A stretch of 64,000 bases of DNA. It comes from a virus. Lineage: Duplodnaviria > Caudoviricetes. The stretch covers positions 35,701-99,700 of IMG/VR virus record IMGVR_UViG_3300027813_000007. The stretch is one strand, 5' to 3'. The notes under the pieces are model-generated. The model ran no database searches, was not told the DNA's origin, and saw only the letters and a program-made list of their open reading frames with translations. Numbering within the stretch: the stretch's first letter is position 1; each line of letters begins with the position of its first letter. Shown in pieces: positions 7,212 to 55,366 of the stretch. A program made the position numbers and the translations under genes.

Positions 7212-7248
7212 TTGATACTTACTATATATTTATAATAAAAATACAGAC

Positions 7249-22715: not shown

Positions 22716-25700
22716 ATGGCTAAAGACATTAAAATTGTACCACAACCGACAGGTACGACACTACCTTATATAATTTTTGAAAACACTAGTGGTGACATTA
22801 TTTCGTTGAATGTTAATAATGATGGTACTTTAGAATTTTCAGGTCAAACTCACGGTGGTAATTTAGTAGTTATTGGTGAGGATAGAACAAATATAAAAGG
22901 TTCGATTCGTTTGAGTAATGATATGTCATTTAATGGTGTTAGTACTATTACTGATACTGGAGGGTGGAAAGGAAGTGTCGTAGGTCTTAAAGGTAATATT
23001 GGACCCACAGGTGGTAGTGCCAATAAGGGTGAGCAAGGTATAACTGGTGGTGGTGGACCTATAGGTCTACAAGGTGCCGTAGGTTTACAAGGTTCAAAAG
23101 GAGCTAAAGGTGTACAAGGTGGTCGAGGAACACTTGGACCTATCGGTACATCCATAGTTGGTGAGGATGGTGATAAAGGATTAAAAGGTTTACAAGGACC
23201 AACATCAGGAGATAAAGGTAATCGTGGACCTACAGGTTCAACAGGTTTAAAAGGTGAGGTTGGTTTAAAAGGTGTTATAGGTGGTATAGCACAAACAGGT
23301 CTGATTGGTATACAAGGTGATGACTCTGATAAAGGTATTGTTGGTGATAAAGGTAGTAAGGGACTTAAAGGCCCACAAGGACCAAAAGGAGTCAAAGGTA
23401 TTAAAGGGTTAGAAGGTCAAAAAGGAATAATTGGACAACAAGGGCCAGTTTCTGAAGATGGGGTTATTGGGTATAAGGGTCTTAAAGGAGTGAAAGGACC
23501 ACAAGGACTAAAAGGACCTAAAGGTATAGATGGACCACAAGGACCAATAGGTCTAACATCATCAAAAGGACCAATAGGCCCACAAGGGCCAAAAGGACCT
23601 ACGGGTTTAAAAGGTTTAAAAGGTATTATAGGTATAAAGGGAGTAAAAGGGGTAAAAGGGGTAAAAGGAGTTGACGGACCAAAAGGGTTAATCGCTACTT
23701 CAGGAGACAAAGGACCACAAGGACCTTTAGGGACTAAAGGTGTTGAAGGAAATAAAGGAAATAAAGGATTAAAAGGAGTAGAAGGGACAAAAGGACCAAA
23801 AGGGTTTCAAGGTAATCAGCCGAATCCGAGTACTCAAGGGACCCAAGGTAGTCAAGGAATTCAAGGAGCAACATCAGTAGATGTGGGACCTATAGGTAAT
23901 AAAGGATTAAAAGGGGTTAAAGGTTTAAAAGGACCTAAACCAGGTAGAGGGATACAAGGACTACAAGGTAATATTGCTACTCAAGGACTAATAGGACCTA
24001 TCGGACCTAAAGGTGATGACATTGGAGATAAAGGACTTAAAGGAGTTAAAGGTAAAAAAGGAGTTAAAGGGATTGAAGGTGGTGATGGTCAAAAAGGTCA
24101 AAAAGGTCTTATTGCCCCACAAGGACCAACAGGTTTAAAAGGTTTAAGTGGTCCAATTGGGCCTAAAGGACCAAAAGGTAATAAAGGAGTTATTGGACCA
24201 AAAGGGCCGAAAAATGTTCAGGGTTCTATAGGTAATATAGGTAACCAAGCTATCGTAGGTAATAAAGGTGGACGTGGAGTAACTAGTAGTGACATCGGAA
24301 ATAAAGGTACTCAAGGTATTAAAGGTATTAAAGGTCTTAAAGGACCACAAGGACCTAATGGTCCTCAATCAAGTAATGGTATACGAGGAAATCAGGGACC
24401 ACAAGGTGATGGGACTAATCAAGGTCCAACATCAACAGATAAGGGACCTAAAGGTTTAAAAGGATTAAAGGGTCTGTTTTATACTGGTGCGGGACCTGTA
24501 GGTTTAAAGGGAGCACAAGGTCCAATAGGTGAAACAGGACCAAAAGGGTCGATAGGTAACACTGGAATATCCTCATCTAAAGGTCAAAGAGGCCCACAAG
24601 GTGACTTAAAAGGGTTAAAGGGTATAAAAGGACCGCAAGGAGGAACATCTTTAGATAAAGGTCAAAGAGGTTCACAAGGGGGTATAGGTGTACAAGCAGC
24701 CAAAGGACCAACAGGTTTAAGTAATAATGTAAGAGGTTTAACTGGTGACCAAGGTTTAATTGGGCCACAATCTACCGATAAAGGACAAAAAGGTCCACAA
24801 GGTGGATTGGGTAACCAAGCTCAAAAAGGTCTTAAAGGACCACAAGGCCCAACTAACTCAACTAAAGGACTTAAAGGACTTAAAGGGATTAAAGGTAAAA
24901 AGGGGACACAAGGAACAGGAGGACAACAAGGACCAAAAGGTACTACTTCAACAGTAAAAGGACAAAAAGGTATTACTGGAACTATCAAAGGTATTAAGGG
25001 TCTTAAAGGAGTAAAAGGACCAAAAGGTAATCAAGGGTCATTAGGTCCACAAGGAAGTATTGGTAATACCTCAACAGTAAAAGGTTTTATAGGACCAACT
25101 AACTCAACTAAAGGTATTAAGGGTCTTAAAGGAGTAAAAGGACCAAAAGGTAATCAAGGGTCATTAGGTCCACAAGGTGCAAGAGGGGTCGCTTCCACAG
25201 TAAAAGGTTTTATAGGACCAACTAACTCAACTAAAGGTATTAAGGGTCTTAAAGGAGTAAAAGGACCAAAAGGTAATCAAGGTACTCAAGGAGTAATAGG
25301 TTCACAAGGGTCAGCTTCAACATTAATGGGGCCAACAGGTCCAACTAGTAGTGAAAGAGGACCACAAGGACCACAAGGAGTTGATGGACCAAAAGGATTA
25401 AAAGGTTTTCGAGGACCACAAGGGGTAATAGGTGCAACTTCAACAGTAAAAGGACCACAAGGTCCAACTAACTCAACTAAAGGACTTAAAGGACTTAAAG
25501 GGATTAAAGGTAAAAAGGGGACACGAGGAACTATAGGTACACAAGGTGTGAGAGGTTTAATTGCGGGAGTAGGAGATAAAGGACTTAAAGGTCTTAGAGG
25601 TGTTTTAGGTCCACAAGGAGCAGTTGGACCACAAGGTTTAATTGGACCTCAATCTGCTGGAGGTGGTATCGGAGATACTGGACCTACAGGACCTAAAGGG

Positions 25701-26465
25701 CCAACTTCAACAGTAAAAGGATTTAAAGGACTTAAAGGAATTAAAGGACCACAAGGTAGTAGTGGTCAACAAGGATATCAAGGACCAACCGGAAATAATT
25801 CAACGGTTAAAGGGTATAAGGGACCACAAGGAACGGAAAAAGGTTTAAAAGGTTTAAAAGGGCAAACAGGACCCACAAGTACTGACAGAGGTCTACAAGG
25901 ACCACAAGGAACTAATTCAACCACTAAAGGTCCACGAGGTCCACAAGGACTAACTGGTGGGGGAGGACCAATAGGGCCAAAAGGTACCCAAGGTACAGCT
26001 GGAAGTATAGGACCAATAGGTAAAACAGGACCACAAGGTGTACAAGGTTCAAATGGTGGAGGAGGTTTAGGTGGTCCAACAGGTCCAATTGGTTTAATCG
26101 GCCCACAAGGTCTACAAGGTCCACAAGGTCCACAAGGACCGGCATCGGATAAGAGATTAAAAAATAATATTAAAACACTTAAAGGTAATTTAAGTAAATT
26201 AAAATTAATTAATGGGGTTAAGTTTACATGGAAAGGTGATGTTACTAAGTTTGATGGTGGAATAGGTAACGATATTGGATTTATTGCTCAAGATATTAGA
26301 GAAGTAATACCTGAAGTAGTATTTACTAGTGAAAGTGGTTACCTAAAACTTGAGTACGGCAAACTAGTGTCTATTGGTATTGGTTCTTTACAGGAACAAA
26401 ATACACGTATAGATAAAATAAAACTCAGAATTAACTTATTAAAATCAGAAATTTTAAATGGGTAA
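22716..26465 (+). CDS. giant collagen-like fibre protein A with C-terminal S74 intramolecular chaperone
   Basis: Gly-X-Y from aa ~90 to ~1143; [21 protein letters not shown]. Confidence 0.9.
24849..25524 (+). repeat. 123-nt-period internal repeat in collagen A; 61-nt exact duplication 615 nt apart
   Basis: CCAACTAACTCAACTAAAGG at 24849, 25095, 25218, 25464. Confidence 0.85.
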
Positions 26466-29400
26466 AGATATTAAAATAAACCCAACAGGGGGGACTATAA
26501 ATTTTTCAGGTGCTAGTAGTACTAAGATTAGTATTGATTATAGTGGCGGTGAATTAAATTTTAACACTCATTTAGGTAATGACTTTAAAATAAGTTCAAA
26601 CTTAGAGCTTGACAACATGAAGTTCATGCCTTCCGATTCGGTACAAATGGGAAATGGTAACGAATTAATTGATAATTTAGGTAATTGGAAAGGTTACCCT
26701 GTAAATTTACCTGGAACTAACGGAGATAAAGGTTTAAAGGGGTTATTAGGTAATAAAGGTGTACAGGGTAGTCAGGGTACACAAGGTATACGTGGTGAAC
26801 AAGGGTTAAAAGGTAATTTCGGTGACGATAAAGGTATTGTTGGAGATAAAGGATTTAAGGGTCTTAAGGGTACTAAGGGTAAAAAAGGTCCACAAGGAAC
26901 ACAAGGGACAACAGGTATAAAGGGGTTACGAGCATCAACAGGAGATGCAGGTCTACCGGGCCCTGATTCACAAAAGGGTTCTGTTGGACCAAAAGGTTTA
27001 AAAGGTTTAAAAGGTTTAAAAGGGTTAAAGGGGTTAATTGGTATTTCAGTCAATGGACCTACTGGTCTTGTTGCCAGTAAAGGGAGCCAAGGTCCTGTAG
27101 GGACTAATAAAGGAGAAGTTGGACTCAAAGGCACTGTAGGTATTAAAGGACCAAAAGGGTTATTAGGTCCACAAGCTAGTCAAGGGACTGATGGGTTAAA
27201 AGGTGACTTGGGAGATGAAGGACTCAAAGGGCTTACTAGTGATGATAAAGGTATTAAAGGTATAAAAGGATTAAAAGGATTAAAAGGACCTAAAGGGTCT
27301 AAAGGTCTTGATACGGATGACGGATTAAAAGGTGATGTAGGTCCAAAGGGTTCTGTTGGTGTAGACGGACCTATAGGTGATTTAAAAGGACCAAAAGGAC
27401 AGATTGGAGTTGTTGGACCTAAAGGGTTTAGAGGGAGTAACGGTTTAATTGGTGACTCACCTAAAGGTACCTTAGGTTCAGGAGGAGACAAAGGACCAGT
27501 AGGTAATAGAGGTATAACGTCTACAGATAAAGGTAGTAAAGGACTTAAAGGTCAGATAGGTAGTAAAGGGATTATCGGAGTAAAGGGACTTAAAGGTTTA
27601 ATTGCGTCACAAGGTAGCCAAGGACCAAAAGGTCCTATCGCAGACACTGGAGATATTGGTAATAAAGGTGATAAAGGATTAAAGGGGTTAAAAGGTAAAA
27701 AAGGTTTATTAGGTAATCAAGGACCACAAGGAAGCGTTGCCGACCAAGGACCAAAAGGACCAATTTCAGCAGATGGGGAAGGGGCCGACAAGGGTATTAA
27801 AGGTATAAAAGGAGTACAAGGACCAATAGGGCCAAAAGGTATTGATGGTTTGAAGGGACCGCAAGGTTCTACACCAACAGCTACATTAATAACTGCCAAT
27901 AGGAACTTACATTTAGATGCTACAGACCCGTTAAGTTATTCCGGAAGTGGAACATCGTGGTTTGACTTGTCATCAAGTAACAATGACGCAACATTAGTGG
28001 GTGGAGTTAACTTTAATGACACTAACTACATGGATTTTGACGGTGTTGAAGGCTCTTACGTACAATTAAGTTCTCAATCCACTATGAGTCGTAGTTCATC
28101 AACGATATGTATAGAATTATATAAAGACATCAGTAATAGTACTTTATTATGGGGTACCAATTATACTAATATGGTAGAAGTGAGAACGGGTTCTTTTTAT
28201 AGTGAGACAGCATCTAACTGCAATTATTTTAATTCGCCCGGGTTTACTTTTAATAACTCACAATGGTACCAATATACTATAGTTTTTAATAGTAGTAGTG
28301 CTTATCACTATATTGATGGTGGATATATAGGAGAAACCCCAAGTTACGGTAATGATAATTGTGGACCTGCAGTTACTTCATTAGTCGCTGATTTTGATTG
28401 GACTAGAATTGGTGAATCATCGGCATACAACCCTAACTTTAATGGTAGAATACGAAGGTTAATTCAATATACTACAGCATTTACCGCCGAACAAGTTTTA
28501 CAGAACTATGAGGCGATGTTAACATTACCTGGTGACCGTGGAGAAAAGGGTCAACGAGGTCCACAAGGAAATAAGGGTAATAAAGGACTTAAAGGTCTTA
28601 AGGGACTCAAAGGCGTAAAAGGACCTGGAGGCGATAAAGGTCTAATAGCTACACAAGGCCCAAAGGGTCCGATAGGTACTGATGGTGACCAAGGACCTAC
28701 AGGTAATAAAGGACTTAAAGGTTTTAAAGGTGAAAAAGGTCTTAAAGGTTATAAGGGTATTAAAGGTGTACAGGGACCAAAAGGTTTAATTGCTCCTTCA
28801 GGTGACCAAGGACCTATCGGACCCGATAGTACTAAAGGGTTAAAAGGATTAAAAGGGGCTGTAGGGTTTAAAGGGTTTAAAGGTAAGAAAGGATTAGAAG
28901 GACCAAAAGGGATTAAAGGTCTGAAGGGAGTAATAGGTGATAAAGGATTAATTAGTACGTTATCGGGACCAACAGGTACAAAAGGAGTTAAAGGTATTCG
29001 TGCGACTGACGGAGATAAAGGTTTTAAAGGTGTAAAAGGGTTTAAGGGACCACAAGGTGACGTAGGTAATAATTCTACAACTAAAGGTTATAAAGGATTA
29101 GAAGGACCAAAAGGTTTAAGGGCTACGGATGGATTAAAAGGTTCTAAAGGTTTAAAAGGTAGAAAAGGGATATTAGGTGATTTAGGACCACAAGGAACTA
29201 CTACAGGTCCAACAGGACCAACAGGTCTTCAGGGACCAACAGGTCCAATCGCATTTAAAGGATTAAAAGGACTAAAAGGTACAGACGGGAATATTGGACC
29301 AAAAGGACCAAAAGGGCTTATAACCCCATCATCAGGACCAATAGGTCCACAAGGAGATAATGGTCCAGCCGCGTTTAAAGGATTAAAAGGATTAAAAGGT

Positions 29401-31140
29401 GTTACAGGACTTAAAGGTCCTAAAGGACCACAAGGAACGACTACTGGCGCTCAGGGAGATAATGGTCCACAAGGAGATAATGGCCCAGCCGCGTTTAAAG
29501 GATTAAAAGGGATTAAAGGGCCAAAAGGGTATAAAGGTCCTAAAGGACCACAAGGAACGACTACTGGCGCTCAGGGAGATAATGGTCCTCAAGGAGATAC
29601 TGGTCCAATCGCATTTAAAGGGTTTAAAGGTATTAAAGGATTAAAAGGTGTTCGAGGTCCTCAAGGAACAAAAGGAGTTACTTCAACAGTAAAAGGATTT
29701 AAAGGACCAAAAGGACCAAATGGTTCAGTCGCAGATAAAGGATATAAAGGATATAAAGGACCTAAAGGACCTAAAGGACCTAAAGGACCACAAGGAACTA
29801 CTACAGGTCCAACAGGACCAACAGGTCTTCAGGGACCAACAGGTCCATCCGCTGATAAAGGAGTTAAAGGATTAAAAGGACCAGACGGGTATAAAGGTTT
29901 TACAGGACCAAAAGGACCAACATCAACAGATAAGGGAACTAAAGGTACAACAGGACCAAATTCAACATCAAAAGGACCAAAAGGGTTAAAAGGACCACAA
30001 GGTCCTTATGGGAATGCTGGTGTAAGAGGAGTAACAGGGTCTCAAAGTTCATCTGTAGGACCAACAGGTCCAACATCAACAGATAAAGGTTATAAAGGAC
30101 TTAAAGGTCCAAGAGGGGGTCAAGGTCCACAAGGTAATGGTGGACCAAAAGGACCAATAGGTAACCAAAGCTCGTCTGGGGGACCAACAGGTGAATTAGG
30201 TTCTCAAGGAACGTCTTCAACGGTTAAAGGTTATAAAGGGTTGACGGGTAATATAGGTCCCTCAGGTGATAAAGGTTTTAAAGGTGCCCGAGGAAATGAC
30301 GGGGGTCAAGGACTAAAAGGACCAAAAGGTAAATATGGGCCGCAAGGAACACAAGGAACAAAAGGACCTAAAGGACGAAAAGGTTTAATTGGTAGTCAAG
30401 GTATTCAAGGACCAGGCGGAGAGCAAGGTAGTGCAGGTAAAAAGGGTAGAAAAGGTTTAAAAGGACCTAAAGGCCCTACCGCAACAACTTGTTACGCACA
30501 TACAATACTCATACCAAGTGGAAAGGGTGTTAACTGTAATACTTGTCTTGGAACTGGAAATACTCCTTGTGGTCTTGGAACTACCGTTACACTTTATTCG
30601 AACACTTCAGGGGCGTTAAGTAGTTCTTCTTTTTTATATGATACTAATGCCTGTACCACCTGTAATACCAGTGGTCTTCCTCTTCAGTGTACTTTAACAA
30701 CAACTATAACTATATGGGACCAAGACCACGCAAATACGAATTTATATTCATGGAGTCACAGTGGTGTACCTAAAAGTAGTTGTGGTTTAAAAGTATGTGG
30801 AACTTGCAGTTTCTCAGATGAAAGAATGAAATCAGGTATTAGAACAATTTCTAATTCATTATATTCATTACTTAACATTAATGTTACTGAATATGATTGG
30901 AATGAAAAATATTCAGGTTATGATTTCTTAAAAGAAAGAAAACAATTACATTCGATTGGTATGGTAGCTCAAGAAATTAGAGAATTATTTCCTGAGGTAG
31001 TTTATAAAAGGGACGATGGTTATTTAGCTATTAAATATTATAAACTAAACGCATTAATTATTGAAGCGATTAAGACCCACCAACTATTTATTGAAGATAT
31101 CGAAGAACAAATAAACTGGTTAAGAACACAGATTGATTAA
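26458..31140 (+). CDS. giant collagen-like fibre protein B with inserted LamG/ConA-like domain, Cys-rich domain and S74 chaperone
   Basis: Gly-X-Y aa ~86-472 and ~692-1341; insert LHLDA..SYSGSG..WFDLS..FDG..W..YIDG..IG..FNGRI..EQVLQNY; 10-Cys segment; SDERMKSGI. Confidence 0.9.
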   Translation: MGKDIKINPTGGTINFSGASSTKISIDYSGGELNFNTHLGNDFKISSNLELDNMKFMPSDSVQMGNGNELIDNLGNWKGYPVNLPGTNGDKGLKGLLGNKGVQGSQGTQGIRGEQGLKGNFGDDKGIVGDKGFKGLKGTKGKKGPQGTQGTTGIKGLRASTGDAGLPGPDSQKGSVGPKGLKGLKGLKGLKGLIGISVNGPTGLVASKGSQGPVGTNKGEVGLKGTVGIKGPKGLLGPQASQGTDGLKGDLGDEGLKGLTSDDKGIKGIKGLKGLKGPKGSKGLDTDDGLKGDVGPKGSVGVDGPIGDLKGPKGQIGVVGPKGFRGSNGLIGDSPKGTLGSGGDKGPVGNRGITSTDKGSKGLKGQIGSKGIIGVKGLKGLIASQGSQGPKGPIADTGDIGNKGDKGLKGLKGKKGLLGNQGPQGSVADQGPKGPISADGEGADKGIKGIKGVQGPIGPKGIDGLKGPQGSTPTATLITANRNLHLDATDPLSYSGSGTSWFDLSSSNNDATLVGGVNFNDTNYMDFDGVEGSYVQLSSQSTMSRSSSTICIELYKDISNSTLLWGTNYTNMVEVRTGSFYSETASNCNYFNSPGFTFNNSQWYQYTIVFNSSSAYHYIDGGYIGETPSYGNDNCGPAVTSLVADFDWTRIGESSAYNPNFNGRIRRLIQYTTAFTAEQVLQNYEAMLTLPGDRGEKGQRGPQGNKGNKGLKGLKGLKGVKGPGGDKGLIATQGPKGPIGTDGDQGPTGNKGLKGFKGEKGLKGYKGIKGVQGPKGLIAPSGDQGPIGPDSTKGLKGLKGAVGFKGFKGKKGLEGPKGIKGLKGVIGDKGLISTLSGPTGTKGVKGIRATDGDKGFKGVKGFKGPQGDVGNNSTTKGYKGLEGPKGLRATDGLKGSKGLKGRKGILGDLGPQGTTTGPTGPTGLQGPTGPIAFKGLKGLKGTDGNIGPKGPKGLITPSSGPIGPQGDNGPAAFKGLKGLKGVTGLKGPKGPQGTTTGAQGDNGPQGDNGPAAFKGLKGIKGPKGYKGPKGPQGTTTGAQGDNGPQGDTGPIAFKGFKGIKGLKGVRGPQGTKGVTSTVKGFKGPKGPNGSVADKGYKGYKGPKGPKGPKGPQGTTTGPTGPTGLQGPTGPSADKGVKGLKGPDGYKGFTGPKGPTSTDKGTKGTTGPNSTSKGPKGLKGPQGPYGNAGVRGVTGSQSSSVGPTGPTSTDKGYKGLKGPRGGQGPQGNGGPKGPIGNQSSSGGPTGELGSQGTSSTVKGYKGLTGNIGPSGDKGFKGARGNDGGQGLKGPKGKYGPQGTQGTKGPKGRKGLIGSQGIQGPGGEQGSAGKKGRKGLKGPKGPTATTCYAHTILIPSGKGVNCNTCLGTGNTPCGLGTTVTLYSNTSGALSSSSFLYDTNACTTCNTSGLPLQCTLTTTITIWDQDHANTNLYSWSHSGVPKSSCGLKVCGTCSFSDERMKSGIRTISNSLYSLLNINVTEYDWNEKYSGYDFLKERKQLHSIGMVAQEIRELFPEVVYKRDDGYLAIKYYKLNALIIEAIKTHQLFIEDIEEQINWLRTQID
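29184..29847 (+). repeat. 120-nt-period internal repeat in collagen B; 64-nt exact duplication 600 nt apart
   Basis: GGACCACAAGGAAC.ACTAC at 29185, 29425, 29545, 29785. Confidence 0.85.
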
Positions 31141-34100
31141 TGGCTAATATAATAATATACCCTACTGGGAGTACTTTAAATACTAATCCACATATAATTT
31201 TTAGTGGTACAGGTGTGGACTATACTATTGAGATAGACACTACGGGAGATTTAATATTTAAATCTTCGACAGATATCTTTAAAATAGTTGATAGTACAAG
31301 TCCTCTATTATTGCCGGGTGAGGTTAATGTGGTTAATAGTGAATTATATGTTGGGACAACTATGGTTGTTAATTCTAGTGGTGATTGGGTTGGTGATACA
31401 CATAACCTAAAAGGGTATAAGGGATTAAAAGGTGGACAAGGACCAACAGGTACAAAAGGTAATACTGGGATTAAGGGACAGAGCGGAGCCAAAGGATTAG
31501 AAGGTCGAAAAGGTGAAAAAGGTGTTGATGGACCACAAGGACCAACAGGTGGACAAGGTCCAACAGGTAATGATTCTGAAAAAGGTCAAAAAGGTTTTTT
31601 AGGTCGTGAAGGGACTAAAGGGTCTGTAGGACCAAAAGGTTTAAAAGGTGATAAACCATCAAATAGAAGTCAAGGTATAAAGGGACCTACAGGTCCAAAA
31701 GGTCCGACATCTACGGATACAGGCACAAAAGGACCAATAGGTTTAAAAGGTATTAAAGGTTTAAAGGGTTTAAAACCATCTCAAGGACCACAAGGCGAAA
31801 TTGGAGGGGACTCACCCCAAGGACCTACAGGACCAAAAGGACCAACATCACCTGATAAGGGAGAGAAAGGGATTAAAGGAGTTAAGGGACTAAAAGGTGT
31901 TAGAGGTGTACTTGGTACGCAAGGACCACAAGGAGGAAAAGGTGTTAGAGCTACAGACGGTGACACAGGACCACAAGGACCTACCGGACCAAACACAGAT
32001 ACCGGACCAATAGGTTCAAAAGGGGTAAAAGGTTTAACTGGTCCACAAGGAGAAATAGGACCTGATGGGGTTATAGGTATTCAAGGACCGCAAGGACCGA
32101 CAGGACCAAGAGGTACTCAATCTACAGATAAAGGAGATAAAGGTTTAAAAGGATTAAAGGGTGTTACAGGTATTAAAGGACCTAAAAATACACAAGGTAA
32201 TATAGGTATACAGGGCGAAAAAGGTTTAATCGCGTCTCAAGGAGATATTGGACCTGATGGTCCCGTATCAGTAAAAGGACCAACCGGGCCAAAAGGACCA
32301 GTAGGACCAAAAGGATTAAAAGGTTTAAAAGGGGTTATAGGTGATTCACCTAAAGGTAGTTTAGGTTCAGGAGGAGACCAAGGACCAAAAGGACCTACAA
32401 GTACGGATAAAGGAACTAAAGGATTAAAAGGTTTAATTGGTATAAAGGGGATTAAAGGGATAATAGGTTCACAATCTACCGCCTCAGTCGGTGATAAAGG
32501 ACCGCAAGGGCCGACAGGTTTAATAGGGGAAACATCGACAGATAAAGGTATTAAGGGTATACAAGGACCTAAAGGGTCTGTAGGACCAAAAGGTTTAAAA
32601 GGGGCCATTGGTTTAAATGAAAAAGGTTTCATTGGTGACACCGCAGATAAAGGACCACAAGGACCTACAAGTACGGATAAGGGACAACAAGGAGATACAG
32701 GAATTGGTGGACCAAAAGGATTAAAAGGTATAACTGGTGAACAAGGCATATCCCCAAAAGGGGCAGTAGGTACAATAGGTCCTGCAGGTCCGGTTGCATT
32801 AAAAGGCCCAACTTCAACAGATAAGGGACCAATAGGTATTAAAGGACCTGTAGGACCAAAGGGGTTGAGAGGTACCTTAGGACCACAAGGACTATCAATA
32901 AAAGGACCAAAAGGTCCACAAGGACCGGTAGGGTCAACAACAACAGATAAAGGGTTTAAGGGACCACAAGGACCAAATGGTCCAACAAATACAGATAAGG
33001 GTGAACAAGGACCTAAGGGGCCAAGAGGAATACAAGGAACCCAAGGAGGTATAGGTGATGGAGGACCGAAAGGATTGACGGGGTCGGGAGGACCAACAGG
33101 TCCAACTTCAACAGACAAAGGACAAAAAGGCCCACAAGGACCTAACATAGGACCAAAAGGACCAACTGGACCACAAGGACCAAAAGGTCCAAAAGGGATT
33201 ACAAACACTACATCAGGAGACCAAGGCCCAACAAGTACTGACCAAGGACCAAAAGGTCCAAAAGGTATTAAAGGTATTCAAATTGGTAGAGGACCTCAAG
33301 GGGCTGAGGGACTTAAAGCAACCCAAGGACCAAAAGGACCAACTGGACCACAAGGTAATAATGGTACAGATAAAGGACCACAAGGTGAAAAAGGACCACA
33401 AGGTATTCAAGGACCACAAGGGGTGGTTGGAACTAAAGCTAGTACCGGAGCAGCAGGACCAACAGGTCCAAAAGGTAATACTAGTACTGAAAGAGGTCCA
33501 CAAGGTATTAAAGGTATTCAAATTGGTATAGGACCACAAGGTGTGGTTGGACCTAAAGCCGGTACTGGAGCAGTAGGACCAACAGGGCCAACAGGACCCA
33601 ATAGTAGTGATAGAGGACCACAAGGTATTAAAGGTGTTCAAATTGGTAGAGGACCACAAGGGGTAGTTGGGGCTAAAGCCAGTACAGGTGCAGGGGGAGA
33701 TAAAGGACCGCAAGGACCGGTGGGTAATGTTAAAGGACTAAAAGGTGTAAAAGGACCAAAAGGACCACAAGGACCTATAGGTCCAAAAGGTTCTATCTTA
33801 TCTCAAGGCGCATCAGGACCAGCAGGACCAGCAGGTCCAAATAGTTTGGACCCAGGACCTACAGGTATTAAAGGTATTCAAATTGGTAGAGGACCTCAAG
33901 GGGCTGAGGGACTTAAAGCAACTAATGGTGCAGTAGGACCAACAGGACAAGCGGGTAATACTAGTACAGACAAAGGAAATAAAGGATTAATTGGTACTCA
34001 AGCACCATCAGGACCTACAGGTATTAAAGGGCAAATTGGTCCACAAGGACCCACTGGTCCCACAGCATTTAAAGGGGATAAAGGTCGTAAAGGTCAAAAA

Positions 34101-34880
34101 GGTTATGTTGGCTCGAGAGGTAATCAAGGAGGGATAGGAATTCAAGGACCTAAAGGACCTCTAGCCGATAAAGGTTTAAAAGGTTATAAAGGTATTACTT
34201 CAACAGTAAGAGGACCACAAGGACCTACAGGTGTAAGAGGAACACAAGGAACACAAGGAACAAAAGGTAAAAAAGGAATACGAGGACCACAAGGACCAGT
34301 AGGGTTAAATGGGCCAGCTGGTTTTGATGGAGCATTAGGACCTGATGGGGATAAAGGTTTTAAAGGTCGTAAAGGTCCACAAGGACCAGTAGGTACAAAA
34401 GGATTAAAAGGAATCCCAGGACTGGAAGGGCCTGCTGGAGCTAAAGGTTCAACAGGTGCAAAAGGAATAAAGGGTAAAAAAGGTTCACAAGGACCACAAG
34501 GTGCGCAAGGTGACCAAGGACCAACAGGACCAATAGGTAGTTCTTCAGATAGAAGATTAAAGATTAATATTAAAAAGATTGATACCCCATTAGATAAAGC
34601 TCTAAATTTAAGAGGTGTAGAATTTATATGGAGAAAAGAAGGTATAAATGGTGAAATATTACAAGAAGGTGGCAGAAAAGATATTGGTGTTATTGCTCAA
34701 GAAATAAAAGAAGTTTTACCTGAGCTAGTACATGGTGATGAGGAACATGGTTATAGAGTTAGATATGATGAAATGATATCAATTTTATTTGAAGCTATAA
34801 AAGAACAAGAATCAATTTTGGAGACTCAAGAGGTTAGTTTAACTGAATTAGAGAATACGTTTAAACGTAATCAACAATAA
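31140..34880 (+). CDS. giant collagen-like fibre protein C with C-terminal S74 chaperone
   Basis: Gly-X-Y aa ~92-1135; [21 protein letters not shown]. Confidence 0.9.
33263..33922 (+). repeat. 120-nt-period internal repeat in collagen C; 60-nt exact duplication 600 nt apart
   Basis: AGGTATTAAAGGT.TTCAAATTGGTA at 33263, 33503, 33623, 33863. Confidence 0.85.
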
Positions 34881-46116: not shown

Positions 46117-46473
46117 TTAAAATAAAGAGAAGGAGACGATGTCTCCTTTTTTTACGACTTGTTCTTCACAAAAACCACCAGAGACCTCTAAAACTGTATC
46201 ACCAAATCCTTGATATGATTCACAATTTTTCTTATCATTACATGGTTGACAGTTAGAATAAATTTTAGTTATTGTTGTTCCATCTATGAAAATAATGTCT
46301 AATGGTATGATACAATTATACATCCAAAAACTTTGTTCGGTACGTTCAGGCATAAAAAATAACATACCATCAAAGGACTCGTCAAATCTTTTTCCCATCA
46401 TTCCATTAGTTATGGATTTTTTAGTGGAAGAAACTTTGACTTTTAAAATATTATTTTTTATAATTACTTTCAT
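46117..46473 (-). CDS. DUF192-family protein
   Basis: GMM, GMLF, FWMYN..IPLDIIFID, VLEVSGG. Confidence 0.85.
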   Translation of the reverse strand: MKVIIKNNILKVKVSSTKKSITNGMMGKRFDESFDGMLFFMPERTEQSFWMYNCIIPLDIIFIDGTTITKIYSNCQPCNDKKNCESYQGFGDTVLEVSGGFCEEQVVKKGDIVSFSLF

Positions 46474-46502
46474 ACCATATAAATATACATAACAAGTAAT
46501 AA

Positions 46503-46910
46503 ATGAAAAAATACGCGGGAATTATCGTAAGATGTGATAACAAAGTTTTACTTTGTAAGAGGAATTCAGAAACAACTTTACCAGGGTTTTGGTCTTGTCC
46601 TGCAGGAAGTGTAGAGGAAGGTGAAAATACTAAGGATGGTGCTGTGAGAGAATTTACAGAAGAAACGAATTTACCTGTTATTGAAGATATTGTTTTTGCT
46701 GCGATTATCAAAAGATATAATAGAGATGGGTCTAAAGAGAAAGGGACATTCTATTGTTACTTAATGGATGTTAATGAGGAAATTTACCCTGACTTAGAAA
46801 ATGCACCTGATGGTGACGAACATACTGAATTCGGATATTTTGGTAAAGATGAGTTACCACAACCAATGACTAAACAATTTAATAAACTTATAAATATAAT
46901 TTTAAAATGA
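46503..46910 (+). CDS. NUDIX hydrolase
   Basis: PAGSVEEGENTKDGAVREFTEETN Nudix box. Confidence 0.9.
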   Translation: MKKYAGIIVRCDNKVLLCKRNSETTLPGFWSCPAGSVEEGENTKDGAVREFTEETNLPVIEDIVFAAIIKRYNRDGSKEKGTFYCYLMDVNEEIYPDLENAPDGDEHTEFGYFGKDELPQPMTKQFNKLINIILK

Positions 46911-47134
46911 ACAAATTAGTAAACATGTTAAGAACATCTGCACAGGCAGATAAAGCAAAGGCATTATTATCTCTTGAATTACTTGGTAACAATGGGGTAG
47001 GAATCGGAGACCACTCAACAGGTGACTTCTATAAAAATGCTGAAGAAGCACTAGTGATGTTGGTAGATGCTGACGATAGATTAGGTGCGTTAGAGAAATA
47101 CTTTAGTACTAAAATTGATGGTAACATCCTTTAA
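46907..47134 (+). CDS. hypothetical phage protein
   Basis: VGIGDHS motif; 75 aa. Confidence 0.65.
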   Translation: MNKLVNMLRTSAQADKAKALLSLELLGNNGVGIGDHSTGDFYKNAEEALVMLVDADDRLGALEKYFSTKIDGNIL

Positions 47135-47281
47135 ATTTAACTATTTTAAAGTAAAATATGAAAAAAACCCTTAAAGGGCTTGTCTGAAGGGAATTTTTTT
47201 GTATGTTTGTATTACTTTTAGAGTTTATGGGAGTATTTATATCTTACCCTACTGAATTTTATAAAAGTTTTTAAAAAAAAG

Positions 47282-47313
47282 TTTGACAGATTAAAAAAAT
47301 TGTTTTACATTTG
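47282..47313 (+). promoter_or_regulatory. strong promoter for the ncRNA (Bacteroidota -33/-7; also TTGACA-17-TACATT)
   Basis: TTTG 47282, 20-nt spacer, TACATTTG 47306; a second TATGTTTG at 47202 and TATTTATA at 47234. Confidence 0.75.
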
Positions 47314-47342
47314 TCATAAGAAATCAGTAAGAGTACTGAAAA

Positions 47343-47354
47343 TGTTCTTTGAAA
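47343..47354 (+). promoter_or_regulatory. boxA-like antitermination element
   Basis: TGTTCTTTGAAA just downstream of the promoter, as in rRNA leaders. Confidence 0.5.
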
Positions 47355-48203
47355 TATTATTAATGTCAATCTTAACTAACACAGTTTGTGGAAGAAATTT
47401 AAAAGATTAACCCCTTTTTTTCTTAAAAGGTTAAGTGAGACATTTACCGGCGGTTTAGCGTCGTTAGATAACCCCAGCAATGGGACTAAAGGGATTGAAA
47501 CGGGAATAGTATACCGTGAATATCCGCAGAGTTTACTCTGACAACTAAACAAAGTGGCTACGGTCGAGACCCTAAGGGCAACTGCTAAGGGGATGAGACC
47601 ACTCTGAATCCATGGAATATCAGAGTTGCGATAGTGATATCAATAGGAAAAGCTACAGGTGACGGTTCGACACACCCTGTCAGGTGTTGTAGGGCTGAGT
47701 ACCAGTATGAGGGGATTCCGATACGTTAAGTTAACGTGTTCCTGAAATACCGTAGGTTGACAGACTTACAGAGAGGTGTGAAGCATTTTGTTTTCAAAAG
47801 AAACGAAACTTCTCCCGAAGCACATCTTTCAAATTTCCATAGTTACTTTTATATAAACATAAAAGAGAGCTAAAGTTCTTCGGGCGTTAACAACGAAAGG
47901 TGTCTAACACTTCGAGTCGTCAGACTAACGAAGTCATTGTAAGACCGCAAGTCTTCCGATGTTGATTACAAAATACCTGGTGGGATAGCAATCCCTTAGT
48001 GAACTCGCAAGGTTTAACAGAGTAAAGTAGTAGTTGAGTGGTTGTTAACGATAAGAGTGGTTCACTCAAATAACCGACACTGACTTGATACTTTCGGCAA
48101 CGAGAGTGGATACATGAGCAACCGTCATAGGGTAATCTCACTAAAGACAAGTCGTTATAAACGTATAATCTCAGCGTTCTATACTCTATTATATATCTTC
48201 CTT

Positions 48204-48234
48204 AACCTCAGTCCTAACCGACTGAGGTTTTTTT
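48204..48234 (+). terminator. intrinsic terminator closing the ncRNA
   Basis: AACCTCAGTC-CTAACC-GACTGAGGTT-T5. Confidence 0.88.
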
Positions 48235-48298
48235 ATGCTCAATAATTAGTATATGTGTAAAATATTGCTTATATTTGTATAAATAAAAAAATAAAATT

Positions 48299-48628
48299 AT
48301 GGAAGGAATTATCACATTAGTCATTATCGGTTTCGTTTTAACGTTTGGTTCACAACTATTAAAAGGTATTGGAAATATCTTTGCAGCTTCAGGTAGGATT
48401 GGAGGTTGGATAGTTGGAATTATCTTAGTTGTGTTCTTATTAAAAACACTTGTTTTTAGTTCAACACCCGAATATGTAGAACTTGGTTCAGGTGAACCTG
48501 GTAGTGTAGAGCATTTTATAGAGGAGACAGGTGCTGATGGCTCCACTCTTGTTAATGGTGTTATTATGTATGACGGTGACGGTTATAAATGGGATGATAA
48601 CGAAAAAGAATACGTTGAAAATGAATAA
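48299..48628 (+). CDS. two-TM membrane protein
   Basis: hydrophobic N-half; TATATTTG promoter element at 48270. Confidence 0.65.
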   Translation: MEGIITLVIIGFVLTFGSQLLKGIGNIFAASGRIGGWIVGIILVVFLLKTLVFSSTPEYVELGSGEPGSVEHFIEETGADGSTLVNGVIMYDGDGYKWDDNEKEYVENE

Positions 48629-48676
48629 TAACCAAAAGTAATAGGGTAAATCAATAATTAAACGTATATTTGTAAT

Positions 48677-48952
48677 ATGGAAAAAGGAGATAAAATAAAA
48701 GATATTAAAAACGGTTCAATACACATTATTGAATCTATTGAATCATTTGATGGGGACACTATAATTTTTACTGAGGACAGTAAATGTTTACCGATTAAAG
48801 ATGTGTGTGAATTTAAAATGTGTGATGAGATTAAAGAAGTTCTAACTAATAACCCTGAAATTATAGATGATTATTTAACGGAGACATACGTTAAACCGTA
48901 TCAAGAGTATTTTAATAAATTAAAAGAAAAATATGAAAACGATAAAAATTGA
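48677..48952 (+). CDS. hypothetical protein (SH3/KOW-like N-terminus)
   Basis: KGDKIKD..HIIESIESFDG..IFTED; resembles ORF 49536; TATATTTG at 48665. Confidence 0.6.
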   Translation: MEKGDKIKDIKNGSIHIIESIESFDGDTIIFTEDSKCLPIKDVCEFKMCDEIKEVLTNNPEIIDDYLTETYVKPYQEYFNKLKEKYENDKN

Positions 48953-49187
48953 ACACCCAAAGTACGGAATCCTTCAAGCAAAAAGTTTTGATGATGATAT
49001 ACAATTTAAGATTTATATTAAGATGGTTCACTCTTGTTTGGAACTTAAAGAGGATTTAACCACTTCCAACGGTAAAGATTTTCTTCTTCACATACCATAC
49101 GAATTATTAAGGTCTTCAATGGTAATAGGTAATGTCGAAAAAATTAGTTTAGCTGAGTACGCAATTCAAAAATCTAAAACACATTAA
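48933..49187 (+). CDS. hypothetical protein
   Basis: 84-aa ORF. Confidence 0.6.
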   Translation: MKTIKIEHPKYGILQAKSFDDDIQFKIYIKMVHSCLELKEDLTTSNGKDFLLHIPYELLRSSMVIGNVEKISLAEYAIQKSKTH

Positions 49188-55345: not shown

Positions 55346-55366
55346 GATAGTTTTTATATATAAATA

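Follow-up and report, generated by a model that had tools for sequence, protein, structure and literature searches.

The DNA analysed here, a stretch of 64,000 nucleotides that we refer to as the window, comes from a 99.7-kb marine virus record with an estimated completeness of 34%. Its phage genes include those for a tail fibre, an endolysin, a primase and a thymidylate synthase, the last of which finds its best phage match in a Flavobacterium phage (51.5% identity), and a Shine-Dalgarno-like word stands upstream of only 4 of 85 ORFs. The host of this phage is probably a member of the Bacteroidota. At least 0.82 of the words sampled from a 2.5-kb stretch are found in 14 DNA runs, among them four that possibly represent the source sample, and the phage lineage is an abundant marine one.

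Within the window, genes stop at 47134 and restart at 48299, leaving a gene-free gap of 1164 nt. This agrees with an earlier, sequence-only reading of the locus, which had pointed to a sole large gap without a credible gene. Specifically, the longest stretch of the window without ORFs of at least 60 aa spans 47135–47919 (785 nt), compared with 373 nt for the runner-up. That reading had also described the region as more GC-rich, and its GC content is 0.41 at 47400–48235 versus 0.326 for the whole window; every hairpin and motif that it listed is present where it had placed them. The five small ORFs (43–76 aa) inside the region give no match in a Pfam search. Additionally, p84 (48933–49187) falls into no Pfam or PHROG family, its Atlas leads all being sub-threshold, and tRNA genes are absent from both the window and the 99.7-kb contig.

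GOLLD identity and RNA architecture

GOLLD RNAs are among the largest non-coding RNAs of bacteria or phages. The Rfam model of this family, RF02032, matches 47771–48177 on the plus strand with 298.8 bits (E 1.7e-84) along its entire length (model 1–416 of 416, not truncated), against a curated cut-off of 150 bits applied over the conserved 3′ region, and no other Rfam family exceeds its cut-off in the 64-kb window. ROOL, OLE, group I/II introns, RNase P and tmRNA yield no Rfam match above cut-off in the window, none of them appears in a permissive Rfam scan of 47100–48350 up to E = 1, and ARAGORN finds no tmRNA in the window. We regard it as virtually certain that the region 47282–48236 is a bona fide, full-length member of the known GOLLD family. 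The sequence-only reading had offered a GOLLD-like RNA or a new large RNA class, and had held that a strong GOLLD match in an Infernal search of Rfam would remove the novelty; the full-length match upholds the first option, refutes the second and does remove the novelty of the RNA class. The locus teaches nothing new on the GOLLD RNA class itself. In line with membership, the RNA is encoded in a phage, as judged by the virus record and its structural, lysis and replication genes. A neighbouring tRNA, which is a frequent but not a defining trait of GOLLD and lies within ~1.3 kb in 38 of 78 diverse loci, is absent here.

A blastn search with 47250–48250 against 50,697 phage records returns no match, and relatives of this GOLLD can be reached only through motif scans and profile searches. 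The first viral motif scan gives 119 loci, 62 of which belong to the same GOLLD clade with 62–99% identity; the other 57 are chance matches that do not match this GOLLD, and an Rfam check of 20 of them finds no GOLLD. A motif scan of bacterial genomes gives 121 loci, none of which matches this GOLLD, and no host prophage copy is found there; these loci are used solely as handles to reach rRNA operons. The comparative alignment comprises the window and 33 unique relatives (34 sequences), and a second scan covers 78 diverse viral GOLLD loci in 46 clusters.

From its 5′ end, the RNA consists of a variable leader hairpin, a structured 5′ domain and the conserved 3′ domain, all on the plus strand. 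In the P1-like leader hairpin (47362–47449), a stem formed by 47362–47377 with ~47432–47449 closes a variable insert. This stem is long in the minimum-energy fold of 32 of the 34 sequences, starts 15–18 nt after the start of the boxA element described below and ends just before a conserved CGGCGG; its letters vary between subclades, and sequence conservation across the hairpin is low (0.51–0.56). In the alignment with relatives, conservation jumps at 47450, where the 5′ domain (47450–47770), delimited by conservation and covariation, begins. Its RNAalifold structure comprises 85 pairs, in which 99.0% of cells pair, and both sides have changed in 38 of them, where shuffles give 19.7 ± 2.2 (none of 500 attains 38) and slid controls 3–11; the alignment fold takes 27 of the 34 sequences as input, omitting the near-identical rows L034, L041, L044, L033, L005, L079 and L048. 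A pairing of the boxA letters with 47769–47773 in the RNAalifold output is an artefact of the alignment cut at 47775, and is dropped because the letters at 47769–47773 are those of the first 3′-domain helix in the Rfam alignment. A large structured, less conserved 5′ region and a total of ~800 nt, both typical of GOLLD, are found here, one RNA contig (47384–48174) measuring 791 nt.

The 3′ domain (47771–48177) is the part modelled by Rfam and includes the AU-rich linker that the sequence-only reading had already recognised. This linker is real: it lies at ~47831–47866, aligns to an unpaired A/U-rich stretch of the RF02032 model and shows the lowest conservation within the RNA (identity 0.59–0.66). 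A linker of this kind, variable and AU-rich, is a trait of GOLLD and follows the first 3′-region hairpin. Two of the four long-range pairings proposed earlier are confirmed. The helix GTTAACAAC 47886 / GTTGTTAAC 48041 (47886–47894 with 48041–48049) is paired in 306 of 306 cells and the helix GACTTG 48082 / CAAGTC 48148 (48082–48087 with 48148–48153) in 204 of 204, both with compensatory changes on the two sides in the 34-sequence alignment, and both are part of the Rfam GOLLD consensus. Conserved 3′ helices kept by compensatory change, a further trait of the family, are found here, including a long-range helix that encloses several hairpins. The pairing GTGAGA 47435 / TCTCAC 48136, on the other hand, is rejected because just 86 of 204 cells pair. 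GCTGAG 47694 / CTCAGC 48170 is paired in 203 of 204 cells, yet it is unsupported since both sides are nearly invariant and 70 loci from other GOLLD clades lack the 5′ word at the corresponding distance.

A new large structured RNA class, unrelated to GOLLD, would fit a leader and 5′ 320 nt that lie outside every Rfam model as well as the empty blastn search against the phage records. However, the GOLLD match is full-length and reaches twice the family cut-off, and a 5′ half without an Rfam model is what is expected of GOLLD, which leaves this reading extremely improbable. That the region is a protein-coding or decayed coding sequence whose apparent structure arises by chance deserves next to no credence either: although five ORFs of 43–76 aa overlap it, Pfam matches are absent in all five, base-pair covariation explains the conservation (38 compensatory pairs, a number that none of the 500 shuffles reaches), and the Rfam GOLLD match also speaks against coding.

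Promoter-like sites, boxA and terminator

Stacked host-type and phage promoter elements had been proposed upstream of the RNA. The sites are present on the plus strand and conserved. The upstream host-type site (47180–47209) consists of TTG at 47180–47182, a 19-nt spacer and TATGTTTG at 47202–47209, and forms a conserved block in the window and 33 unique relatives, its −33 part being degenerate in the window (CTTGTC versus CTTGAC in relatives). Promoters of Bacteroidota have the consensus form TTTG / TAnnTTTG, and an arrangement like the upstream site also precedes Tenacibaculum rRNA operons. The phage promoter-like box (47232–47250), with TATTTATA at 47234–47241 followed by TTACCC, is kept in all 33 unique relatives, the most distant included. 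The window holds 14 copies of ATATTTATA versus 5.4 ± 2.3 expected (0 of 100 shuffles reach 14), many copies of TATTTATA lie 12–37 nt upstream of start codons, and we infer that the box functions as a phage promoter-like element. The proximal host-type site (47282–47313), with TTTGACA at 47282–47288, a spacer and TACATTTG at 47306–47313, is conserved in relatives as well. A promoter scan places TTGACA-17-TACATT at 47283–47311 with 10 of 12 matches, and the sequence predicts a transcription start at ~47318–47321. An enrichment of such sites over shuffles is absent: consensus promoter matches in the region number 10 versus 6.7 ± 2.7, and the promoter case therefore rests on conservation. In the contig, the enrichment of TAnnTTTG is no more than mild (156 versus 131 ± 12).

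A boxA-like site had likewise been suspected upstream of the RNA, and the word at 47344 is conserved in relatives. The boxA-type element GTTCTTTGAAATA (47344–47356, plus strand) is recognised by this conservation and by its match to rRNA boxA. Specifically, neither the window nor any of the 33 unique relatives departs from GTTCTTTG, and the 99.7-kb contig has a single copy of the exact boxA 11-mer. The element is separated by 30 nt from the conserved TACATTTG box upstream and by 5 nt from the leader hairpin downstream, outside the RNA contigs. Among 29 Bacteroidia rRNA loci, GTTC[N]TTGA lies at most 700 nt upstream of 16S in 26 and in the 16S–23S spacer in 15; the most frequent leader form is GTTCTTTGAAAATATTG and the phage word is GTTCTTTGAAATATTA, a match to both leader and spacer of host-lineage rRNA that marks the word as boxA-type. 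The rRNA leader of Virgibacillus carries TGCTCTTTGAAAAC after its promoter, and a search for rRNA in five further genomes gives a 16S locus from one only. Host rRNA operons have the same order, promoter then boxA. Between the promoter and boxA of the window, a putative small hairpin, TCAGTA-AGAG-TACTGA (47324–47339, plus strand), occupies a boxB-like position; it occurs in part of the clade, is deleted in others and has a counterpart at the equivalent position of the Tenacibaculum rRNA leader.

In 34 of the 78 diverse viral loci (15 of 46 clusters), the 5′ edge of GOLLD is marked by a boxA-type word, which stands 775–975 nt upstream of the end of the 3′ motif. On the RNA strand, the 750–1000 nt bins hold 35 of 41 boxA matches, and the RNA itself contains none. 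In 23 of the 34 boxA-bearing loci, TTG-N18-22-TAnnTT[TC]G is found at most 80 nt upstream of boxA, versus 3 of 34 in a control window, and TAnnTT[TC]G by itself is found within this distance in 25 of 34, mostly 24–30 nt away (control 5 of 34). The remaining 44 loci lack a boxA-type word; 26 of these have a tRNA within ~1.3 kb, often directly flanking and on the same strand.

Downstream of the RNA, the proposed intrinsic terminator is confirmed at 48204–48236 on the plus strand. Its 10-bp stem, AACCTCAGTC / GACTGAGGTT (48204–48229; 5 of the 10 pairs are G-C), encloses the loop CTAACC and is followed by a T run. The stem is conserved and covarying, with pairing in 338 of 340 cells of the 34 sequences and compensatory changes at four positions.

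RNA contigs and the proposed role of the leader

Six marine RNA runs each contain 0.27–0.31 of the words sampled from the 2.5-kb stretch. Metatranscriptome contigs from four runs (four studies) extend together over 47371–48174 on the plus strand with 0 differing letters; being contigs rather than reads, they give ends and strand as hints only, and no true ends, strand or level. The contig of run X15 spans 47384–48174 and bears sequencing-adapter letters at both ends, run X16 gives four pieces within 47371–48000, and the contigs of runs X18 and X19 span 47380–48097 and 47415–48132. The flanking genes are uncovered by RNA contigs, save for one small contig (46905–47074) in one run. No RNA contig of the four runs reaches the promoters, boxA or the terminator, and the absence of contigs at 47135–47370 and 48175–48300 does not mean that these parts are untranscribed. 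At the level of sequence comparison, the proposal of an rRNA-like expression is supported for promoter, boxA and terminator, and the RNA contigs, apart from that small one, are restricted to the RNA body.

As a whole, the locus at 47282–48236 is very likely a stand-alone GOLLD transcription unit in a large marine phage, equipped with a predicted rRNA-style leader. We propose that transcription would start at the promoter-like sites stacked upstream, namely the phage TATTTATA box and two sites of the host TTG/TAnnTTTG type, that the transcript would pass through a leader with an rRNA-operon-type boxA ~30 nt after the proximal promoter and end at the intrinsic terminator, and that leader and terminator tail would be trimmed to leave an RNA of ~790–815 nt. 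In its most likely role, boxA would recruit the host NusB/S10-based rRNA antitermination machinery, and antitermination would allow the ~0.9-kb untranslated transcript to be made at a high rate, escaping Rho-dependent termination as rRNA does. We consider it somewhat probable that boxA acts as an antitermination signal.

A possible but less probable alternative keeps the RNA as GOLLD and denies the GTTCTTTGAAA word a role as antitermination signal. The word might instead belong to a promoter, as a degenerate −7 box with a start near 47357–47360, serve as a site of processing or protein binding, or be an inert leftover of a host rRNA promoter cassette that the phage has picked up. Every RNA contig starts downstream of the word, at 47371–47415, which favours this alternative; however, rRNA leaders are also cut away from the mature RNA, so that the boxA model, too, predicts a leader missing from steady-state contigs. 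A promoter role would suit the TTTG that GTTCTTTG has in common with the −7 consensus TAnnTTTG, and in some relatives the word is just a few bases past the −7 box (minimum 6 nt) and would therefore be at the very 5′ end of the transcript. Against this, a TTG at the right distance upstream of the word is absent in the window, and in most boxA-bearing loci the word follows a complete promoter-like site at the preferred distance of 24–30 nt. The 44 of 78 GOLLD loci without the word likewise favour the alternative, whereas the occurrence of the extended word in both the leader and the 16S–23S spacer of Bacteroidia is the classical distribution of boxA and makes a promoter unlikely.

Returning to boxA as an antitermination signal, we tentatively put forward, as a plausible idea that falls short of probable, that the GOLLD of Bacteroidota phages is a transcription-level mimic of rRNA, whose leader copies the host order of promoter, optional hairpin and boxA. 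If this is true, RNA polymerase would be turned into the Nus-factor antitermination and folding complex that is normally reserved for rRNA, allowing fast, Rho-resistant and chaperoned synthesis of a ~800-nt cage RNA, and the infected host's own rRNA synthesis might be deprived of Nus factors and ribosomal protein S10. Where GOLLD genes are embedded in tRNA arrays, transcription as part of a stable-RNA operon would lead to the same outcome. The literature searched, to which the original 2009 GOLLD description does not belong, gives no link between GOLLD and boxA, and a search with the motif letters gives nothing relevant among the matches listed. The strings "antitermin" and "Rho" are absent from the available part of PMC12286853. 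The putative rRNA-like leader of GOLLD, which we did not find in print in the literature searched, offers a testable lead. Taken together, the locus represents a GOLLD gene that stands cleanly on its own in an abundant lineage of marine phages, with its RNA body in the libraries of four studies; this clade gains a defined, covariation-supported 5′ domain, and an rRNA-style leader, common to 34 of 78 diverse GOLLD loci, suggests how a long untranslated RNA may avoid premature termination.

Comparison with known systems

The available part of PMC12286853 describes the env-38 GOLLD, whose structure is solved, as folding without protein into a closed cage of 14 subunits with D7 symmetry, in which the caps consist of 5′ domains and the ring of 3′ domains, with the linker in the interior, and gives the biological role of GOLLD as unknown. 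The present RNA resembles GOLLD in its full-length 3′-domain match, in the AU-rich variable linker after the first 3′-domain hairpin, which sits where GOLLD has its disordered linker, and in a separate structured, less conserved 5′ domain with a total of ~800 nt. Additionally, it has in common with GOLLD a phage origin, many GNRA-type GCAA loops and presence in RNA libraries. Unlike env-38, which lies downstream of a tRNA-Met, and certain other GOLLD loci, where tRNAs adjoin the RNA or sit inside the linker, the RNA here lies in a 99.7-kb contig without any tRNA gene and forms a unit by itself, for which promoter-like sites, a boxA leader and a terminator are all present at the locus. Among GOLLD RNAs, the cage is known from env-38. 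ROOL, likewise a large RNA associated with phages, also assembles into a cage made of RNA alone and contains an internal linker that is disordered, and its sequence and secondary structure are described as different from those of GOLLD (PMC12286853, available part); the window gives no Rfam match to ROOL.

Bacterial rRNA operons, whose boxA serves NusB/S10-dependent antitermination, resemble the locus in the word itself, which is that of Bacteroidia leaders and spacers (GTTCTTTGA...), in the order from stacked promoters through boxA to a large structured untranslated RNA, and in a small hairpin ahead of boxA in part of the clade. They differ in that the unit here is phage-borne, stands ahead of a non-ribosomal RNA and has a single copy of boxA, with none inside the RNA and with a function predicted from sequence.

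In the nut sites of phage lambda (boxA/boxB), a boxA-type RNA in a phage leader modifies the host RNA polymerase for N-dependent antitermination. In contrast to these sites, no N-like protein or nut-type boxB is identified here; the word at this locus matches the rRNA boxA of the host, and what follows it is a non-coding RNA instead of an operon.

A GOLLD RNA retaining its 5' and 3' domains

Protein genes on the + strand stop at 47134 and restart at 48299, and the sequence-only reading was right that this gap holds no credible gene and has a higher GC content. Specifically, 47135-47919 (785 nt) is the window's longest stretch without an ORF of at least 60 aa (the runner-up has 373 nt), none of the five small ORFs within the region has a Pfam family, and GC is 0.41 in 47400-48235 versus 0.326 in the window. 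In an Rfam scan of all 64 kb, the sole family over its curated cut-off is GOLLD (RF02032), a large phage-associated RNA, which matches 47771-48177 (+) over the full model (1-416 of 416; 298.8 bits, cut-off 150, E 1.7e-84). Permissive Rfam scanning of 47100-48350 yields nothing further but sub-threshold noise. ROOL, OLE, introns and RNase P have no Rfam match in the window, nor does ARAGORN detect a tRNA or tmRNA in it. The suggestion that the RNA is GOLLD-like thus holds and that of a new large RNA class does not: the class is known already, and the locus adds another member. The RF02032 model spans the conserved 3' half of GOLLD only, and the predicted AU-rich linker (~47831-47866) aligns exactly to its unpaired A/U-rich stretch.

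Scanning viral contigs with a 15-letter motif yielded 119 loci, 62 of which match the window's RNA by nhmmer; an Rfam check of 20 of the 57 non-matching loci identified no GOLLD. The clade comprises 41 full-length loci, 33 of them unique, with 62-99% identity to the window, and its conservation jumps at 47450 and remains high until ~48230, with the linker as the sole dip. RNAalifold, run on 47340-47775 with 27 of the 34 aligned sequences (seven near-identical rows were omitted), returned 90 pairs, of which 85 were kept after one helix was discarded as an artefact of where the alignment was cut. These 85 pairs show standard pairing in 99.0% of cells, and 38 are changed on both sides. Shuffles give 19.7 +/- 2.2 such pairs (none of 500 attains 38), and sliding the partners by 1-3 columns gives 3-11. 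Because both controls fall short, the 5' half of the window's GOLLD is a genuine structured domain.

All hairpins and complements listed in the sequence-only reading are present at the coordinates it gives, and its long-range pairings fared differently. The 47886 / 48041 and 48082 / 48148 pairings are confirmed, being paired in 306/306 and 204/204 cells, respectively, each with compensatory change. The 47435 / 48136 pairing is rejected, being paired in just 86/204 cells, and 47694 / 48170 is unsupported: it is paired in 203/204 cells, yet both sides are nearly invariant, and 70 loci from other GOLLD clades lack its 5' word at the corresponding distance. Taken together, these findings show that the locus encodes a GOLLD RNA in which both domains are preserved. 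According to PMC12286853, the RNA of the GOLLD member env-38 assembles without protein into a 14-subunit cage, whose caps are built from the 5' domains and whose ring is built from the 3' domains; the same paper reports that GOLLD expression increases during phage lysis.

The RNA body in metatranscriptomes

Fourteen marine or brine DNA runs, four of which may be the source of the window's DNA, contain 0.82 or more of the words sampled from 46500-49000. Six marine RNA runs contain 0.27-0.31, the share expected if the RNA body alone is present. RNA contigs from four runs of four studies, with 0 letters differing from the window, cover 47384-48174 (X15, with sequencing-adapter letters at both ends), 47371-48000 (X16, in four pieces), 47380-48097 (X18) and 47415-48132 (X19). 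Apart from a low-depth X16 contig at 46905-47074, the flanking genes are uncovered in these four runs, which argues against DNA carry-over as the contig source. The GOLLD body of ~790 nt is present in RNA libraries; strand, level and true ends cannot be read from contigs, and the adapter-flanked X15 contig gives only a hint of recurrent RNA ends near 47384 and 48174. The candidate 3' end at ~48174 would agree with the Rfam model end (48177) and also fits tRNA-embedded relatives, in many of which the tRNA begins 10-20 nt past the 3' motif.

The phage, its probable host and the neighbouring genes

The window (bases 35701-99700) belongs to a 99.7-kb virus record with an estimated completeness of 34%, which implies a large phage. 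Three consecutive, very large genes at 22716-34880 (+) specify tail fibre proteins with collagen-like repeats (1249, 1560 and 1246 aa). The window also carries genes for two endolysin-like proteins, a DNA methyltransferase, a NUDIX hydrolase, a thymidylate synthase, a primase, an exonuclease and SbcC-like proteins. The host is probably a member of the Bacteroidota. Both the boxA variant and the promoter-like sites belong to the Bacteroidia type, a Shine-Dalgarno-like word lies upstream of only 4 of 85 ORFs, and the thymidylate synthase has its best phage match in a Flavobacterium phage (51.5% identity). A glycosyltransferase is closest to those of jumbo Xanthomonas and Stenotrophomonas phages (45-47% identity), and no bacterial-genome locus from the motif scan matches the window's GOLLD.

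Just upstream of the GOLLD unit lies the NUDIX hydrolase gene (46503-46910, +), a pairing kept in 37 first-scan loci, out of 41 full-length clade loci; enzymes of the NUDIX type are capable of acting on the 5' ends of RNA. A DUF192 (COG1430) gene at 46117-46473 (-) stands on the opposite strand amid otherwise + strand genes. Downstream, 48933-49187 (+) encodes an 84-aa protein without a Pfam or PHROG family, which lies 124-1030 nt downstream of the RNA in GOLLD loci. It is present in 33 first-scan loci and in six viral loci of other GOLLD clades (L350, L316, L326, L323, L375 and L284), where boxA occurs in 5/5 judgeable cases (the upstream flank of L375 is only 300 nt). This gene may be GOLLD-linked or may simply reflect shared synteny.

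GOLLD genes often lie near tRNA genes, and the whole 99.7-kb contig, with none, is unusual in this respect. Seven GOLLD loci from the second viral scan (L275, L300, L306, L311, L325, L329 and L332) carry a tRNA gene within the linker region, 320-400 nt before the 3' end. Unlike relatives with a tRNA in the linker or 10-20 nt past the 3' motif, the window's GOLLD has neither.

Upstream signals and the boxA-like leader

Four upstream blocks are conserved in all 33 unique relatives in the alignment: a TTG(AC)-spacer-TAnnTT(T/C)G site at 47180-47209 (+), whose -33 part is degenerate here; a TATTTATA box at 47234-47241 (+); a TTTGACA-spacer-TACATTTG promoter-like site at 47282-47313 (+); and the boxA-like GTTCTTTGAAATA at 47344-47356 (+). 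The TTG/TAnnTTTG form is what we take to be the Bacteroidota promoter consensus. The claimed promoter elements are thus supported by conservation and not by a consensus promoter scan, in which the region is not enriched (10 found versus 6.7 +/- 2.7). The TATTTATA-type word ATATTTATA occurs 14 times versus 5.4 +/- 2.3 expected (0 of 100 shuffles reach 14), and the 99.7 kb hold 42 TATTTATA boxes, many 12-37 nt ahead of start codons (for example at 7227, 11978, 13321 and 50552 on the + strand and at 55366, 35930 and 1371 on the - strand). Given these positions, the box is plausibly a phage promoter element and resembles a promoter specific to the phage whose transcripts would have very short leaders. 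Shortly before the putative GOLLD promoters, a hairpin at 47163-47181 (CCCTT-AAA-GGG), followed by a T run on the minus strand, scores as a minus-strand terminator-like site; only the closest relatives share it. The predicted terminator at the other end (48204-48229) is paired in 338/340 cells, and four of its positions carry compensatory changes.

After boxA, a long hairpin (47362-47449) forms in 32/34 minimum-energy folds, and its stem sequence varies by subclade. Within it, roughly half of the clade keeps AAAAGATTAACCCC and then a T run (47402-47420), and the remaining half carries a TCCTTTCC word beside a small UUCG-type hairpin.

The exact boxA-like 11-mer occurs once in the 99.7-kb contig, and with one mismatch the word shows no enrichment across the window (7 occurrences versus 3.5 expected). 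A second viral scan with the universal 3' motif gave 118 loci of diverse GOLLD clades, in 78 of which the sequence extends 1250 nt or more back from the end of this motif (~1180 nt of it preceding the motif). In 34 of these 78 (15/46 clusters at 85% identity), a boxA-type word sits 775-975 nt ahead of the 3' end, a position that corresponds to the 5' border of the GOLLD RNA. On the RNA strand, 35/41 matches cluster in the 750-1000 nt bins, with 0 within the RNA, and 10 more are scattered over the opposite strand. Nearby tRNA genes (within ~1.3 kb) accompany 12 loci with boxA and are missing from 22, versus 26 and 18 of the loci without boxA, where they often flank directly on the same strand; as the loci are non-independent, this association of boxA absence with tRNA is a lead only.

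The same motif recurs in Bacteroidia rRNA leaders and spacers, which upholds the boxA-like site of the sequence-only reading. Classical boxA is present in both leader and spacer. Tenacibaculum rRNA operons have three stacked TTTG...TAnnTTTG sites, with AGTTCATTGAA after the first promoter-like site, again ~115 nt before 16S, and once more in the spacer before 23S. Among 61 Bacteroidia genomes, 30 had a 16S locus and 29 were orientable; GTTC[N]TTGA lies at most 700 nt upstream of 16S in 26/29 loci, mostly 75-150 nt before it, and in the 16S-23S spacer in 15/29. Their commonest leader form, GTTCTTTGAAAATATTG, closely matches the phage leader GTTCTTTGAAATATTA, and an rRNA leader of Virgibacillus, from the Bacillota, bears TGCTCTTTGAAAAC after its promoter.

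We propose that transcription would begin at the stacked host-type and phage-type promoters, run through the boxA leader, which would recruit host rRNA antitermination factors, and end at the terminator, both RNA ends being trimmed afterwards. The main weakness of this antitermination model is that the RNA contigs of the four runs leave the boxA leader uncovered. A competing explanation, which we hold to be possible and somewhat doubtful, is that the boxA-like word belongs to a promoter or is a site of some different kind. As for the antitermination model, the searchable literature, which leaves out the 2009 GOLLD description and supplements, links no GOLLD RNA with boxA or antitermination, the accessible part of PMC12286853 contains neither 'antitermin' nor 'Rho', and an earlier mention in print is possible. 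A TAnnTT[TC]G box lies at most 80 nt upstream of boxA in 25/34 boxA-bearing GOLLD loci, most often at 24-30 nt, and the full site in 23/34, versus 5/34 and 3/34 in a control window; in host rRNA operons, such a box lies 16-71 nt before 20/33 upstream boxA copies, so that the order of promoter box and then boxA is shared between the two.
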